Source: Escherichia coli (GTDB lineage: Bacteria > Pseudomonadota > Gammaproteobacteria > Enterobacterales > Enterobacteriaceae). From it: DNA of 64,000 bases. A program made the position numbers and the translations under genes. Every line of letters starts with the position of its first letter. Position 1 is the first letter of the stretch. The stretch lies in the NCBI RefSeq assembly GCF_009931435.1, contig NZ_CP043414.1, one strand, 5' to 3'. The notes under the pieces were generated by a model. The model made no database searches, was not told the DNA's origin, and saw only the letters and a list, made by a program, of their open reading frames with translations. Below are positions 20,529-29,671 of this stretch, piece by piece.

Positions 20529-22181
<1,653 letters not shown>

Positions 22182-22253: not shown

Positions 22254-23567
<1,314 letters not shown>

Positions 23568-23589
23568 GCCTGACTTTATCTGATTTAAA

Positions 23590-23619
23590 AATGCCAGCCT
23601 TCGGGCTGGCATTTTTTAT
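23590..23619. terminator. bidirectional intrinsic terminator between convergent eno and the TPM gene
   Basis: AAAAATGCCAGCCTTCGGGCTGGCATTTTTTAT: GC-rich stem with a U-run on the plus strand and an A-run giving a U-run on the minus strand. Confidence 0.8.
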
Positions 23620-23626
23620 GGTTGAG

Positions 23627-24520
23627 TTACCAGCGGCCAGACGCGCCGCCACCGCCAGAAGAACCGCCACCTCCGCTAAATCCGCCGCCACTTGAGCCGC
23701 CACCGGAAGAGGATGAAGAAGAACCTTTTCTTGAAGCTCTTTCTTTACCGAGCGTCTTGTATTTGGCTCGTAGCTTTTTATTAACGATAAGCCAAAAGAT
23801 AAGCAGCGCTACGATCGCAAAAGGCGTTAACATACCGCAGGCAACGATTAAATTCGTCCATGGTCCTGGCTCGGCAACATAGAGGAATACCATCCCGTAA
23901 ATTGCGGCAGTGAGAGTTATCCAGGGTAAATTCGACGGATCGGTAAAAACAATAAAATATGAAAGCACTGCCAGCAATATAATTACAGCAAGCGAAAATG
24001 GGATAGGGGGATTGATACTGTAATAATTCCCCCTGCCTTCCGGTAATTCACCATTCATCAGAAGTGCGCCGATATTTTCGCTTGCCAGTGTTAACCCCCC
24101 CATCAGGTCATCACTTTTGAAAGCAGGGATTAATATATCACGGATAATCTTTGCCGCTTGCAGGTCGGTAACCACCCCTTCCAGCCCATAGCCGACTTCT
24201 ATACGAACAGCATGATCTTCCCAGGCAACCAGAAGTAAAATGCCATCGTTTCGCTGCTTATCTCCCAGTTTCCAGCTATCAAAAACGCGTGTTGCATATT
24301 GTTCAATGGTATCGTCTCCGGTGGATGGCACTATTAATACGGCAACCTGTGCCCGTGTTTTTTGTGTAATATCCTGCAGCTGTTGTGTCAGTGATTGTTG
24401 TTCAGACGTGCTTAAGGTACCAGTAATATCGGTCACCTGTTGGCGCAGCTCCGGCACAGCAATTTGCTGGGCAAGCACAGGAAGGCACCATAAAGTGAGT
24501 AGAAAAAGGATTATACGCAT
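23627..24520 (-). CDS. TPM-domain membrane protein (YgcG-like), paralogue 1
   Basis: ORF 23627..24532 starts with TTG; the ATG at 24520 gives MRIILFLLTLWCLPVLAQQ... (signal peptide), TPM-type N-terminal domain, hydrophobic segments and a C-terminal Gly/Ser tail ending GGGGASGRW. Confidence 0.8.
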   Translation of the reverse strand: MRIILFLLTLWCLPVLAQQIAVPELRQQVTDITGTLSTSEQQSLTQQLQDITQKTRAQVAVLIVPSTGDDTIEQYATRVFDSWKLGDKQRNDGILLLVAWEDHAVRIEVGYGLEGVVTDLQAAKIIRDILIPAFKSDDLMGGLTLASENIGALLMNGELPEGRGNYYSINPPIPFSLAVIILLAVLSYFIVFTDPSNLPWITLTAAIYGMVFLYVAEPGPWTNLIVACGMLTPFAIVALLIFWLIVNKKLRAKYKTLGKERASRKGSSSSSSGGGSSGGGFSGGGGSSGGGGASGRW

Positions 24521-24525
24521 AACGA

Positions 24526-25674
24526 TCACCAACGGTCGGATGAACCGCCACCGCCAGAAGAACCGCCGCCACCGCGGAAAGAGTTTTTCGACGAAGAACG
24601 AGAATGAGCATTACGATTCCCCGTTTTCTTGTTGCTTTTATGCCCTGATCCCAGTTTAAGATTGCCAGTAGATTTGGCCACAATGATCAGCAGAACGATG
24701 CCAGCAATGGTTATTGGGCCGATAAAATGATCAATTAGCCCAATAATTGTTGAGATGAACGCAATATCTTTATTACTGGCAAATACCAGGCACCATCCCA
24801 CAACAATTATCAGCAGCACGACAAACAATGAATTTCGTCCTGATTCACGAACCTGCGGAGCCTTCTTTTGTTTTTTCACTTTAGCGTTTTTATTTTGGGG
24901 GGCCAGCATCATAGGAAATGCGCGGCATATATTAAAAACTACCGCGAGACGCTGCCAGCAGATTGCTGCGAAAAATAAACTAAAACAAACGACCGATATC
25001 CGTCGAATGATGACATCGTTCTGAAAGCAGAAAAACCAGACCATAGGGGTAATCATCGATATCATCCATATGCCAGGCCCTGGATGGGTGGTAAATCGCC
25101 AGAGGACAACGATGGCAACGATCATCAGCAGTGTCCAGGCAAGACATGGCAGAGAGCGTTGCGGATTAGCAAACAGATGATTGGCTAAAGCATCCAAAGG
25201 GCTAAGATTCGCTTTTATATAGGTAAACTGTGCGATGCCTTCAATTCCCTGCGTTAACCCGGAGAAGAGATTATTTTTTTTGAATTCCGGTTGCATATGG
25301 TAATGAACAATTTGCGCAGCTTGTTCCGGTGGCAGCATCTCTTCCAGTCCATGCCCAATCTTCATTGACGCCAGCCCTTCCGGCCAAACGACGAGAATTA
25401 AGATACCTTCGCCGTACCGCTTCTCTCCAACAGGTTTCCAGTGATATAACCCGTAGCTTTGCGAGGCTGCAAGTTTAATGTCTTTACCCCCAGTGGTCGG
25501 CGTTACCAACACGGCCACCTGAAAGTGGTTTTGCTGCTCGAGAGTCTGTAATTGTTGAGTTAAAGCAGTTTGTTCTTCTGTCGTTAATGTCCCGGTTAAG
25601 TCAGTTACTGAAGGCAATTGTTCAGCGAATGCCTGGAAACCACATAGCATCAGAAGTAAGAGAAAAATACGCAT
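24526..25674 (-). CDS. TPM-domain membrane protein, paralogue 2 (longer, polytopic)
   Basis: 382-aa ORF MRIFLLLLMLCGFQAFAEQLPSVTDLTGTLTTEEQ...; ATG at 25674-25672 with AAGGAA RBS; C-terminus GGGGSSGGGGSSDRW. Confidence 0.8.
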   Translation of the reverse strand: MRIFLLLLMLCGFQAFAEQLPSVTDLTGTLTTEEQTALTQQLQTLEQQNHFQVAVLVTPTTGGKDIKLAASQSYGLYHWKPVGEKRYGEGILILVVWPEGLASMKIGHGLEEMLPPEQAAQIVHYHMQPEFKKNNLFSGLTQGIEGIAQFTYIKANLSPLDALANHLFANPQRSLPCLAWTLLMIVAIVVLWRFTTHPGPGIWMISMITPMVWFFCFQNDVIIRRISVVCFSLFFAAICWQRLAVVFNICRAFPMMLAPQNKNAKVKKQKKAPQVRESGRNSLFVVLLIIVVGWCLVFASNKDIAFISTIIGLIDHFIGPITIAGIVLLIIVAKSTGNLKLGSGHKSNKKTGNRNAHSRSSSKNSFRGGGGSSGGGGSSDRW

Positions 25675-25688
25675 TTCAATTCCTTTTG

Positions 25689-26621
25689 TTACCAGCGCCC
25701 GGAGGCGCCACCGCCGCCAGATGAACCGCCGCCGCCGCTGAAATTATCATTGTCAAAAGAGGATGAAGAGGAAGATGACGACGATGATGAAGAACGCCAG
25801 GAGGCCGAGTTACTTCTTTCGTAGCGTGACGGTCGGTTGGCACTGCGCATCGAATCCCGAACCTTTTTGCCGAAGGGGGTAAAAGCGATAGCGACAGCCA
25901 GGAACGGTGTGGCGAAGCAGAGTAATGTTGCGAGTACTCCCCAGCTTCCGCCGAAACCTGCTATAGGTAAAACAAAGGCCAGTACAATAGCTGTGAAGCA
26001 AATTAGTCCCAGCGTTTTGAAATATCCTCTGGCGGAAATAAAGGTCAGTACTATTGCCCAGACTAACAAAGCCCACCAACCGCTAAAGGGCAAAGGGTGA
26101 TCGGTCGGTGTTATCGTTGCTAAATTATTCCCCGTCAGACGATTATCAATATCGCTTATTCCCTTTTGCAAGCCGCCAGCAAGGTCGCCATTTTTAAATG
26201 CCGGAATAATACTGTTGCGAATAATTTTCCCGGACTGCGCATCCGTAATAACGCCTTCCAGTCCGTAACCGATTTCAATACGCACGGTATGATCCTGCCA
26301 GGCGACTAACAGTAGAACGCCATCATCGCGGTCTTTATCACCCGGTTTCCAGCTATCGAATACCCGCGTAGCGTACTGCTCGATGGTTTCATCGCCCGTT
26401 GTTTCAACCACTAACACGACCAGTTGTGCGTGGCTTTTTTGCGTCAGCTCTTTAATCTGATTGGTCAAAGTATTTACTTCATCGTTCGTCAATTTACCGG
26501 TTAAGTCATTCACATACCTGGGTGATTCAGGCACTGGAATTTGTATGGCAAACACAGATGAACAAAAGAAAGCCATAAGGAAGATAAAATTTCGCACAGG
26601 ACTTCCTCGCTTAATGAGCAT
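25689..26621 (-). CDS. TPM-domain membrane protein, paralogue 3
   Basis: 310-aa ORF; shares identical stretches with paralogue 1 (TIEQYATRVFDSWK); C-terminal poly-Ser then GGGGSSGGGGASGRW; start codon uncertain (ATG at 26621 overlaps lemA by 11 nt; an internal Met before the signal peptide is possible). Confidence 0.75.
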   Translation of the reverse strand: MLIKRGSPVRNFIFLMAFFCSSVFAIQIPVPESPRYVNDLTGKLTNDEVNTLTNQIKELTQKSHAQLVVLVVETTGDETIEQYATRVFDSWKPGDKDRDDGVLLLVAWQDHTVRIEIGYGLEGVITDAQSGKIIRNSIIPAFKNGDLAGGLQKGISDIDNRLTGNNLATITPTDHPLPFSGWWALLVWAIVLTFISARGYFKTLGLICFTAIVLAFVLPIAGFGGSWGVLATLLCFATPFLAVAIAFTPFGKKVRDSMRSANRPSRYERSNSASWRSSSSSSSSSSSSFDNDNFSGGGGSSGGGGASGRW

Positions 26622-27213
26622 TAGTATTCTGGCTAAAATCTATTGTCGGGGCTTTACTCACAGCGGCGACATCATCCGGCAAATAATTTTTCTTTGGTGT
26701 GTAATCCATGACTTTTGCGGTTAACACTGCGGGGAATTTGCGGATAGTGACATTATATTGTTCGATGGCTTTAATATATCTTCCTCGCGCAACGGCAATT
26801 CGATTTTCACTTCCTTCGAGCTGTACCATCAAATTTTGATAGAGTTCCTGGGCCTTTAGCTCAGGGTAACGTTCACTAATTATCGTTAACTGACCGAGAG
26901 TGCGAGACACCTGCGCCTGAGCTTGTTGCCAGGTTTGTAATTTTTGTTCATCTCCCGGAGTTTGCTGAAGAGCGTTACTGGCGCGATTAGCCTGACTACG
27001 TGCCAATGTTACGGCTTCCAGTACCTCTTGTTCATGGCTGGAATAACCTTTAATACTGGCGACAAGATTAGGAATAAGATCGGCGCGACGTTGATATTGA
27101 TTTAATACCTCAGACCAGGAAGCGTTAACCTGCTCATCATAGGTTTGAATATCGTTATATCCACAGCCTGATAAATTGAAAATAAATATAATTACGATGA
27201 ATGTTCTGAGCAT
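26611..27213 (-). CDS. lemA: LemA-family lipoprotein
   Basis: 200-aa ORF MLRTFIVIIFIFNLSGCGYNDIQ... with lipobox LSGC and LemA-like coiled region; first gene of a four-gene minus-strand operon. Confidence 0.8.
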   Translation of the reverse strand: MLRTFIVIIFIFNLSGCGYNDIQTYDEQVNASWSEVLNQYQRRADLIPNLVASIKGYSSHEQEVLEAVTLARSQANRASNALQQTPGDEQKLQTWQQAQAQVSRTLGQLTIISERYPELKAQELYQNLMVQLEGSENRIAVARGRYIKAIEQYNVTIRKFPAVLTAKVMDYTPKKNYLPDDVAAVSKAPTIDFSQNTNAH

Positions 27214-27385: not shown

Positions 27386-28057
27386 ATGCAGTACCCGATT
27401 AACGAGATGTTCCAGACCCTGCAAGGTGAGGGTTACTTTACCGGCGTCCCCGCCATTTTTATTCGTTTACAGGGATGCCCGGTCGGCTGTGCCTGGTGCG
27501 ACACCAAACACACCTGGGAAAAGCTTGAGGATCGGGAAGTCTCCCTTTTCAGCATTCTGGCGAAGACCAAAGAGAGTGATAAGTGGGGGGCGGCGAGCAG
27601 TGAAGATTTGCTGGCTGTCATTGGTCGTCAGGGATACACCGCGCGGCATGTGGTGATTACGGGTGGTGAGCCTTGCATTCATGATTTGCTGCCACTGACT
27701 GACCTGCTCGAAAAGAACGGTTTTAGCTGCCAGATCGAAACCAGCGGTACTCATGAAGTACGCTGCACGCCGAATACCTGGGTTACCGTATCGCCAAAGC
27801 TGAACATGCGCGGCGGCTATGAAGTGTTGTCACAGGCACTGGAGCGAGCCAACGAAATCAAGCATCCAGTGGGACGCGTACGTGATATTGAAGCACTGGA
27901 TGAACTACTGGCAACGCTGACCGATGATAAACCACGAGTCATTGCACTGCAGCCGATTAGCCAAAAGGATGATGCCACACGTTTGTGCATTGAAACCTGC
28001 ATTGCGCGCAACTGGCGTTTGTCGATGCAAACACATAAATATTTAAATATTGCCTGA
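27386..28057 (+). CDS. queE: 7-carboxy-7-deazaguanine synthase (radical SAM)
   Basis: 223-aa ORF MQYPINEMFQTLQGEGYFTGVPAIFIRLQGCPVGCAWCDTKHTW... with CxxxCxxC radical-SAM cluster motif. Confidence 0.93.
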   Translation: MQYPINEMFQTLQGEGYFTGVPAIFIRLQGCPVGCAWCDTKHTWEKLEDREVSLFSILAKTKESDKWGAASSEDLLAVIGRQGYTARHVVITGGEPCIHDLLPLTDLLEKNGFSCQIETSGTHEVRCTPNTWVTVSPKLNMRGGYEVLSQALERANEIKHPVGRVRDIEALDELLATLTDDKPRVIALQPISQKDDATRLCIETCIARNWRLSMQTHKYLNIA

Positions 28058-28226: not shown

Positions 28227-28395
28227 GAAGTTTGGTAGATTTTAGTGGGTATAGAGTTATCTTAAACATTTACCTTTTTAATCAATGGATTAAGTGTTCT
28301 TTAACATAATGGATGTGTTGTTTGTGTGATCCTGTAAAGTTGGTAGATTGTGACTGGCTTAAAAAATCATTAATTAATAATAGGTTATGTTTAGA
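28227..28395 (+). promoter_or_regulatory. CRISPR leader of the queE-proximal array
   Basis: AT-rich; AGTTGGTAGATTGT motif at 28339-28352, 43 bp before repeat 1, and a related TTTGGTAGATTTT at 28231-28243. Confidence 0.7.
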
Positions 28396-29218
28396 GAGTT
28401 CCCCGCGCCAGCGGGGATAAACCGGCGGTAAAATTGTTGCTACCGTCTGGCCCTTGCGAGTTCCCCGCGCCAGCGGGGATAAACCGACGGTGCAGGATCT
28501 GTAATTCTTGCTCGCGATGAGTTCCCCGCGCCAGCGGGGATAAACCGAGTTATCAGGATTATTCCCGCTCCGCCGCCAGGAGTTCCCCGCGCCAGCGGGG
28601 ATAAACCGTCGTTTTTGTGGTGGGAGTGTGCGGATTGGTAGAGTTCCCCGCGCCAGCGGGGATAAACCGGCTGACATTGTCAGCTATAACCTTACAATGT
28701 GGAGTTCCCCGCGCCAGCGGGGATAAACCGACGTCCCGCTATTTCCTGGACAGTGTGTAGCGGAGTTCCCCGCGCCAGCGGGGATAAACCGGCGGCGCTA
28801 ACGTGATAATCACGATCAATTATGAGTTCCCCGCGCCAGCGGGGATAAACCGCGGGCGTTAACCTTTTTATAGGCATCTTCCTTGAGTTCCCCGCGCCAG
28901 CGGGGATAAACCGGCTTGCAGCAGCTGCGCCAACATCTGAATACGGAGTTCCCCGCGCCAGCGGGGATAAACCGCTTTTTCCCGTGACAAGATCCAGTTA
29001 ACTGTTGAGTTCCCCGCGCCAGCGGGGATAAACCGCATCACTGGACGCCCATTTGAATAACTCACAGGAGTTCCCCGCGCCAGCGGGGATAAACCGATTC
29101 AGCAAATAGCGAATTTCATAAATATGATGTGTTCCCCGCGCCAGCGGGGATAAACCGTACGTTAAACGCCATCTGTCATGGGTCGTCATGTGTTCCCCGC
29201 GCCAGCGGGGATAAACCA
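28396..29218 (+). CRISPR. type I-E CRISPR array: 14 repeats, 13 spacers (32-33 bp)
   Basis: 29-bp repeat GAGTTCCCCGCGCCAGCGGGGATAAACCG at 28396, 28458, 28519, 28580, 28641, 28702, 28763, 28824, 28885, 28946, 29007, 29068; last two repeats (29129, 29190) are GTGTT variants and the final one ends ...AAACCA. Confidence 0.97.
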
Positions 29219-29671
29219 CCATATAACCCGTTATCTCTTTCTCAAGTTTTTATATTAGCTGTACTTGTAATAAGCAACATATCCACATAACACCTCATGT
29301 TCAAAATAGTTCCCCATGCCAGATAAGTTCACAATTATCGATACAAAAAATCAAATTTAATCAAAGTGTTATATGTATAATCCTTAAACCGTTAAGAAAT
29401 TTTAATATATTATTTTTTTAATATTAATTAATGCCTGTTAATTTTTTCTTTAGAATAACAGTGTATTTTTTAAGCTTGTTATTCATTGATTAAGTAATAA
29501 ATCTGGAAGTTTGTCTTTGTTTTGAGGCTAATGAGTGGTTTTACATAACCGCCTCTATACGCTGTTGATGAATAGTTCTTATGAATAAAGATATCCAGTT
29601 CATACTTTAAGTGAAAATTGATAAAGTGCGATTCGTATTGTCTTTTATTCTAAAGACATCGAGTGTAGTTA

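Follow-up and report, generated by a model that had tools for sequence, protein, structure and literature searches.

Three similar gene ends in an Escherichia coli lemA–TPM operon as the probable coding footprint of a conserved C-terminal protein signature

The DNA analyzed here is a stretch of 64,000 nucleotides (nt) from E. coli (contig NZ_CP043414.1), hereafter the window. After eno, in the eno–queE interval, it contains a convergent minus-strand operon, lemA–TPM-A–TPM-B–TPM-C, which encodes a LemA family protein and three TPM family proteins. The last 17 codons of each TPM gene (tails A, B, and C) form a direct repeat. We put at about three in four the probability that these repeats are the coding sequence of a conserved 17-residue C-terminal signature, with occasional recombination between the tails as a side effect. 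The locus is chromosomal and 100% identical across its extent to that of E. coli strain 2020CK-00188.

A repeat search returned the tails as a single three-copy family of direct repeats, in register with the stop codons and spaced by 899 and 1163 nt. Over 51 nt, DNA identity is 0.78 between tails A and B, 0.82 between A and C, and 0.80 between B and C, compared with 0.48–0.53 for the codon-aligned gene bodies. The Ser/Gly linkers adjoining the tails fail to align between paralogues. Phe, Ser, Ser, Ala/Ser, Ser, and Trp occupy the same offset from the stop codon in all three tails and in the wider family. These results bear out the close DNA similarity described in an initial annotation of this region, for which a self-alignment had been proposed as a check. 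Its coordinates were 2–4 nt off and one quoted string was shorter than its span, the sequences being otherwise as quoted. The same annotation presented the repeats as a conserved nucleotide module. Although the tails do resemble one another, the resemblance follows mostly from the conserved peptide and not from a DNA-level element, and synonymous sites vary between lineages.

Across seven E. coli lineages, four to five codons per tail vary synonymously and one varies in amino acid. Each tail is ∼90–92% identical to its O157 orthologue and only 73–86% identical to the paralogous tails in the same genome, where the differences inside any one genome amount to 7–14 of 51 nt. Since variation is mostly synonymous and the orthologue is closer than the paralogue, the DNA similarity of the tails is mainly due to purifying selection on the peptide, and they are neither a DNA element nor the product of a recent duplication. 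As the coding footprint of a conserved protein motif, they should therefore not be catalogued among regulatory or mobile DNA elements. At the protein level, the paralogues share 33% (A–B), 50% (A–C), and 36% (B–C) identity, which is why we consider the duplication to be old. When codons were resampled with the amino acids held fixed, mean identity was 0.71 with housekeeping codon usage or 0.66 with the genes' own usage (standard deviation 0.03), as against an observed 0.80. An identical peptide rich in Gly (GGN codons) and with few Ser codons thus by itself forces ∼70% DNA identity, and the remaining excess comes from a preference for GGC/GGT and from occasional short gene conversion between tails. 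Where two paralogues have the same amino acid, they use the same codon at 44–54% of positions in the tail and at 31–38% in the body.

The signature extends far beyond this operon. TPM-C residues 1–265, i.e. without linker and tail so that the tail could not bias the matches recovered, were compared with 1.84 billion representative proteins, which gave 22,392 matches. Among the best 150 of these, 109 have the C-terminal signature and end in Trp; the other 41 are mostly short fragments or apparently frameshifted. Aligned without gaps from the C terminus, the 109 homologues read [F/Y/W]-[S/G/R]-GGGG-[S/G/R]-[S/F]-GGGG-A-S-G-[R/S/G/K]-W. Gly is found at positions −15 to −12 and −9 to −6 in 96–109 of them, Ala−5 in 99, Ser−4 in 108, Gly−3 in 97, and Trp−1 in all 109. 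The tail is thus an old, family-wide signature of most long YgcG-type TPM proteins, fixed relative to the free C terminus. Because it is nearly invariant across the family, the motif is clearly functional. Literature searches with the motif strings yielded nothing, and those with ygcG or LemA plus TPM almost nothing; one preprint contains a single remark on a glycine-rich extension.

The tails do recombine. Junctions predicted for in-register tail crossovers were searched for in 5426 complete E. coli genomes. Sequences flanking TPM-B were found in 1114 genomes, with TPM-B itself in 1104 and an A/B recombinant junction in 10. In these 10 of 1114 operon-bearing genomes, TPM-B has been lost precisely and in frame, with the junction lying within tails A and B. 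Nine are O157:H7-type genomes with identical junctions and the tenth is strain 2017-02-2CC, whose flanks belong to a lineage ∼12–13% diverged from O157. TPM-B was thus deleted in at least two independent events. The same junction queries returned 0 genomes each for B/C deletion, A/C deletion, and TPM-B duplication. In the deletion product the frame is kept, the hybrid tail is intact (...GGGGSSDRW or ...SSVRW), and the TPM-B/TPM-C junction is retained. The O157 hybrid tail follows tail A through ...AGC GGT GGT GGC GGT and tail B from TCT TCA GGA on, which places the crossover inside the 16-nt GCGGTGGTGGCGGTTC common to tails A and B of the three-gene O157 genome (L006). In 2017-02-2CC, it lies inside the 11-nt GGCGGCGGTTC. 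Each of these stretches is the longest in-register exact A–B run of its lineage. Separately, O157:H7-type genomes (L005, L006) have a premature stop at TPM-A codon 225 (LAT*LCF) and their A tail is therefore untranslated, though intact in DNA. The Prokaryotic Genome Annotation Pipeline (PGAP) also calls TPM-A a pseudogene in several other strains in which the frame appears open.

A second kind of event can be read from the window's own sequence, where tail B has TCT TCT GGC GGT in place of the TCT TCA GGA GGC of seven other lineages. The three adjacent codons concerned (TCT-GGC-GGT; gene positions 1119/1122/1125) each carry a synonymous change private to the window; together, these changes make tail B identical to tail C at this point and create a 23-nt exact B–C run. 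By a simple permutation, the chance that changes clustered in this way fall in the tail and agree with a paralogue is ∼5e-5, and the tract looks like a short gene conversion from tail C. Gly codons of tails A and B that covary across lineages were also considered as conversion, but were attributed to haplotype linkage and not counted. Exact runs other than the window-specific B–C run measure 11–16 nt (A–B) and, in register, 8 nt (A–C). In E. coli, the minimal efficient processing segment for RecA recombination is ∼23–27 bp, above the 16 and 11 nt of homology at the two junctions. Because the exact homology is short (11–23 nt), the events would fit short-homology or slippage-type recombination at least as well as classical RecA recombination. 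The initial annotation had predicted that the repeats could drive copy-number change by homologous recombination. The population survey that it had proposed supports this through the in-tail A/B deletions, and so does the conversion-like tract, but with the rarity of the events and the missing B/C, A/C, and duplication products, tail recombination is best described as a real but rare side effect.

These observations can be assembled into a simple scheme. TPM-A, TPM-B, and TPM-C are old paralogues, each keeping the signature under purifying selection. Only in the tails do the three genes offer exact homology of a usable kind (11–23 nt, in frame and in register), so that the tails occasionally mediate precise loss of the gene between them, leaving an intact hybrid tail and the downstream gene junction. 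The peptide itself would follow a disordered Ser/Gly linker and face the cytoplasm, where its most likely role would be that of a docking β-strand engaging a partner domain through the free C-terminal Trp, the partner indicated by AlphaFold being a TPM-fold domain.

The three TPM proteins strongly match the Pfam TPM_phosphatase hidden Markov model (PF04536), with E-values of 2.7e-40, 1.5e-22, and 1e-38. The scores are 132.6 (TPM-C), 80.3 (TPM-B), and 137.7 bits (TPM-A) for a gathering score of 22.1 bits, covering profile positions 1–124 of 125. The LemA protein matches PF04011 over its full length at 164.4 bits (gathering score 26.2). More specific NCBIfam equivalogs are not reached, either by LemA for MamQ (91 bits versus 250) or by the TPM proteins for Psb32 (NF047379; 33–40 bits versus a curated cut-off of 160). 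An AlphaFold2 (AF2) model of TPM-C, in which the predicted local distance difference test (pLDDT) exceeds 90 in the domain, matches 5anp_A in Foldseek (E = 4.4e-11, target-normalized TM-score 0.92), and further matches include 7tbr, 2kw7, 3pvh, 8c7i, and 4oa3. These matches confirm the TPM fold, a four-stranded β-sheet with flanking helices. Weak Foldseek matches (E ∼1e-2, probability 1.00) were also obtained to subunit J of the mycobacterial CIII2CIV2 supercomplex (6adq_J, 8ovc, 8hcr), which hints that TPM-fold proteins may recur as accessory subunits of membrane complexes. A weak Pfam match of the Gly-rich region to YxzE-like bacteriocins (21.9 bits versus a cut-off of 40) was judged compositional. 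An anti-phage defence system was rejected as well, since PADLOC protein models returned zero matches for LemA, TPM-A, TPM-B, TPM-C, YqcG, and the hypothetical protein of the L001-type locus described below.

The three TPM proteins and K-12 YgcG share a YgcG-type layout, consisting of a signal peptide, a TPM domain, transmembrane (TM) helices, and a Gly-rich end in GGGGASGxW. In TPM-A, the TPM domain is followed by three TM helices, a Ser-rich linker, and the tail; in TPM-B by ∼5 TM helices and the tail; and in TPM-C by three TM helices, a K/R-rich segment, a Ser/Gly linker, and the tail. From the odd number of TM helices and the preceding K/R-rich stretch, the positive-inside rule predicts a tail in the cytoplasm and a TPM domain in the periplasm. 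Given its lipobox (LSGC), LemA should also be periplasmic. In the full-length AF2 model of TPM-C, the linker (residues 256–285) has a pLDDT below 50, and the last 10 residues form a β-strand with a pLDDT of 93, within which residues 288–296 fall (GGGGASGRW; window 23633-23659, minus strand). In a construct without the TPM domain, the same residues are modeled as coil (pLDDT 47–50). The confident strand thus depends on the presence of the TPM domain, a pattern suggestive of β-strand addition to the sheet of that domain. Outside E. coli, the lemA gene of two unrelated bacteria is followed by a long TPM gene with the tail and then by a 165-amino acid (aa) TPM gene (L007 4855-5352; L008 912-1406), the product of which is without signal peptide, TM helix, or Gly-rich tail. 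This short protein is presumably cytoplasmic, and in those bacteria it would naturally lend itself to pairing in trans with a cytoplasmic tail. Extending this, the tail might be a dedicated docking strand that inserts via its free C-terminal Trp into a TPM-fold β-sheet and links TPM modules into a complex, its coding DNA acting as a permanent recombination joint. We regard this fuller proposal as doubtful, and the modeled docking strand as a lead only.

Several points weigh against the interpretation given above. Tail identity exceeds the codon null (P = 0.003 with housekeeping codon usage), and therefore some DNA-level homogenization or codon selection exists in the tails. The nine O157 genomes lacking TPM-B may be one clade, so that only two independent deletion events are certain. 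The docking-strand idea comes from two AlphaFold runs with alignment depths of 75 and 32 sequences, and docking onto the protein's own TPM domain in AF2 conflicts with the predicted topology, in which that domain is periplasmic and the tail cytoplasmic. The short TPM protein without signal peptide is absent from the E. coli lemA–TPM operon. Finally, TM helix counts based on hydrophobicity are crude, and three and two TM helices are about equally frequent across homologues.

Other explanations of the repeats have to be set beside this one. It is improbable that the tails are a DNA-level module kept because it promotes recombination, i.e. a device for TPM copy-number change or cassette shuffling at a hypervariable locus. 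Such a module would find support in the deletion alleles with junctions in the tails, the conversion tract, and the slight excess of tail identity over the codon null, and also in the high polymorphism of the locus (three architectures in the 5426 genomes) and in allele mosaics with boundaries at or near the tails (the L001 type from tail A, L003 past tail C). Against it, the motif is also kept in single-copy TPM genes that have no partner repeat, K-12 ygcG included, synonymous sites drift freely, exact homology is merely 8–23 nt, and only 10 of 1114 genomes record an event, while searches for TPM-B duplications and for B/C or A/C deletions found none. Recent duplication, or ongoing concerted evolution of the three paralogues by frequent gene conversion, also has a low probability. 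One clear conversion-like C-to-B tract in the window lineage, and a tail A in strain SMS-3-5 that starts TTC CGC as tail B does, would fit this explanation, but the B–C tract is missing in seven of eight lineages, the gene bodies are 33–50% identical in protein and point to an old duplication, and each tail, besides differing from the others at 7–14 of 51 nt within a genome, resembles its orthologue (∼90%) more than its paralogues (73–86%).

Glycine-codon bias alone, a low-complexity similarity of no positional conservation or significance, is an explanation for which the initial annotation had itself allowed. It has something to recommend it, as Gly accounts for 10 of the 17 residues in tails A and C and 9 in tail B, GGN fixes two of three bases, the null expectation is already 66–71%, and the upstream linkers are Ser/Gly-rich as well. 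It is nonetheless refuted by positional conservation across homologues, and we give it next to no weight: the alignment is ungapped and non-Gly residues hold their register relative to the stop codon, Phe−17, Ser−10, Ala−5, Ser−4, and Trp−1 recurring in all three genes as well as in 109 diverse homologues, whereas the neighboring Ser/Gly linkers fail to align. The remaining explanation reads the terminal G-[R/S]-W as a sorting, anchoring, or quality-control signal, whether sortase- or exosortase-like, a C-terminal aromatic residue recognized by PDZ proteases as in outer membrane proteins, or a degron. C-terminal aromatic residues serve as signals in other systems, and here the terminal Trp is invariant and the position of the motif fixed relative to the free C terminus. 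On the other side, the motif is followed by neither a hydrophobic helix nor a basic cluster, the odd number of TM helices and the K/R-rich stretch before it predict a cytoplasmic location, no NCBIfam or Pfam sorting-signal model matched, and AF2 gives a strand docked on a domain, not a free tag. A sorting or anchoring role for the terminal (G/D)RW, as put forward in the initial annotation, is consequently hard to sustain for a motif at the extreme C terminus, and we consider such a signal to be quite unlikely.

The eno–queE interval is polymorphic in E. coli. The lemA–TPM operon is present in 1114 of the 5426 genomes. Another 340 carry lemA–TPM-A followed by a gene for a hypothetical membrane protein of 120 aa, and the yqcG-ygcG arrangement of K-12 is found in the remainder. 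In the 340-genome type (L001; strain 2018-05-2CC), tail A is the exact point from which the sequence is homologous to the window. Its TPM-A gene (L001 2120-2180, 3′ end) closes with the codons TCA GGA AGA TGG, which differ from those of the window and include the rare AGA codon for Arg; the 17 nt before them are identical to tail C. This end may be another junction inside a tail. The TPM-C/ygcG gene is a mosaic. Between the window and L003, the eno flank with the tail and the 5′ 230 nt (the 5′ quarter) are at least 92% identical, whereas the TM-encoding middle (window ∼23690–24290) shows 32–48% identity to L003 and L002 in global alignment and is essentially unalignable. This pattern implies allele replacement, with breakpoints adjacent to the tail and within the TPM domain; the homologous stretch shared by the window and L003 stops just beyond tail C. 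The K-12 yqcG-ygcG arrangement was considered as a product of tail-mediated deletion and rejected, as neither breakpoint lies in a tail: K-12 and the L003-type locus have nt 1–779 in common, followed by 263 nt of unrelated AT-rich sequence and then by the lemA upstream region. In E. coli SMS-3-5, an IS4 transposase gene lies directly downstream of TPM-C on the eno side (L013 1-983).

Coordinates of the operon, its tails, and neighboring features in the window
Feature	Coordinates	Strand	Remarks
pyrG	20544-22181	+	precedes eno
eno	22269-23567	+	convergent to the TPM operon
Hairpin	23587..23617	.	AAAAATGCCAGCC-TTCG-GGCTGGCATTTTTT; between convergent eno and TPM-C; read from sequence
TPM-C gene	23627..24520	-	297 aa from ATG 24520; position of K-12 ygcG
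Tail C	23627..23680	-	last 17 codons of TPM-C, FSGGGGSSGGGGASGRW, plus TAA stop
TPM-B gene	24526..25674	-	382 aa
Tail B	24526..24579	-	last 17 codons of TPM-B, FRGGGGSSGGGGSSDRW, plus TGA stop
TPM-A gene	25689..26621	-	310 aa counted from ATG 26621
Tail A	25689..25742	-	last 17 codons of TPM-A, FSGGGGSSGGGGASGRW, plus TAA stop
lemA	26611..27213	-	200 aa; LemA family, lipobox LSGC; first gene of the operon
queE	27386-28057	+	after the operon

For TPM-A, an alternative GTG start at 26582, preceded by GAGGA, would give a protein of 297 aa; the sequence and the PGAP annotation of the L009 orthologue make it a likelier start than ATG 26621. The TPM-B stop and the TPM-C start are 5 nt apart (24518-24532), and the terminal TGG TGA of tail B yields GGTGA, a sequence resembling a Shine-Dalgarno motif for TPM-C. 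The extreme 3′ end of tail B may therefore be under an extra constraint from translational coupling. The hairpin between eno and TPM-C is GC-rich and flanked by an A-run and a T-run; it is probably a bidirectional intrinsic terminator and was not among the sites returned by a consensus scan. On the other side of the operon, 3′ of queE, type I-E repeats of a CRISPR array (GAGTTCCCCGCGCCAGCGGGGATAAACCG, 61-nt period) occupy 28458-28915 within a surrounding region of 28280-29220, and short open reading frames there that translate to ...VYPRWRGEL... are merely these repeats.

How the operon relates to known systems can be summarized as follows. K-12 YgcG and other COG1512 TPM proteins (PF04536) resemble the proteins studied here in their eno–queE position, in the order signal peptide–TPM–TM–Gly-rich tail, and in the terminal FSGGGGSSGGGGASGRW. 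The K-12 locus differs in having yqcG-ygcG where the window strain has three tail-bearing paralogues plus lemA, and the central part of TPM-C corresponds to a highly divergent ygcG allele. The literature consulted offers no TPM family member with an established function in E. coli. Psb32/TLP18.3, involved in photosystem II repair and assembly, has the TPM fold and a lumenal or periplasmic TPM domain tethered by one or more C-terminal TM helices, but is without the glycine-rich C-terminal extension of YgcG-type proteins. Sorting signals such as LPXTG/sortase, PEP-CTERM/exosortase, and GlyGly-CTERM/rhombosortase are likewise short, conserved, and sometimes Gly-rich C-terminal motifs of envelope proteins. 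Unlike the TPM motif, which comes last, after the TM helices and the basic stretch, they are extracytoplasmic and tripartite, with a motif followed by a TM helix and basic residues; here nothing follows the terminal Trp, which excludes signals of the tripartite kind. LemA–TPM clusters of other bacteria (L007) also have a lemA lipoprotein gene directly before a long TPM gene with the same tail. In the two such loci that were examined the 165-aa TPM gene comes next, whereas E. coli has two further long tail-bearing TPM genes. As for the DNA, deletion and conversion between short direct repeats in tandem E. coli paralogues offer a close parallel, namely a precise loss between in-register repeats ∼1.16 kb apart, a crossover at the longest run of identity (16 or 11 nt), and one short conversion tract. 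The difference is that the TPM repeats are held by selection on a protein motif, which means that the recombination substrate cannot decay.

The finding is mostly ordinary in kind, in that a DNA repeat is explained as the footprint of a conserved, uncharacterized protein motif. It does provide a small, clean natural case in which constraint on a protein preserves a substrate for recombination. The outcome is a short conversion tract and the precise in-frame loss of a paralogue, which has recurred in two E. coli lineages at least, one of them O157:H7. If docking were true, a periplasmic TPM/LemA module could, for example, be coupled to a cytoplasmic TPM partner, or the tail could act as an autoinhibitory plug. 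If the recombination joint were true as well, TPM cassettes at this locus would be deletable, convertible, or swappable in frame. The worthwhile lead is the near-invariant C-terminal signature of YgcG-type proteins. Thousands of bacterial TPM proteins of this type end in an almost invariant ...GGGGASGxW, and the tail is thus an obvious handle for learning what LemA/TPM systems do.

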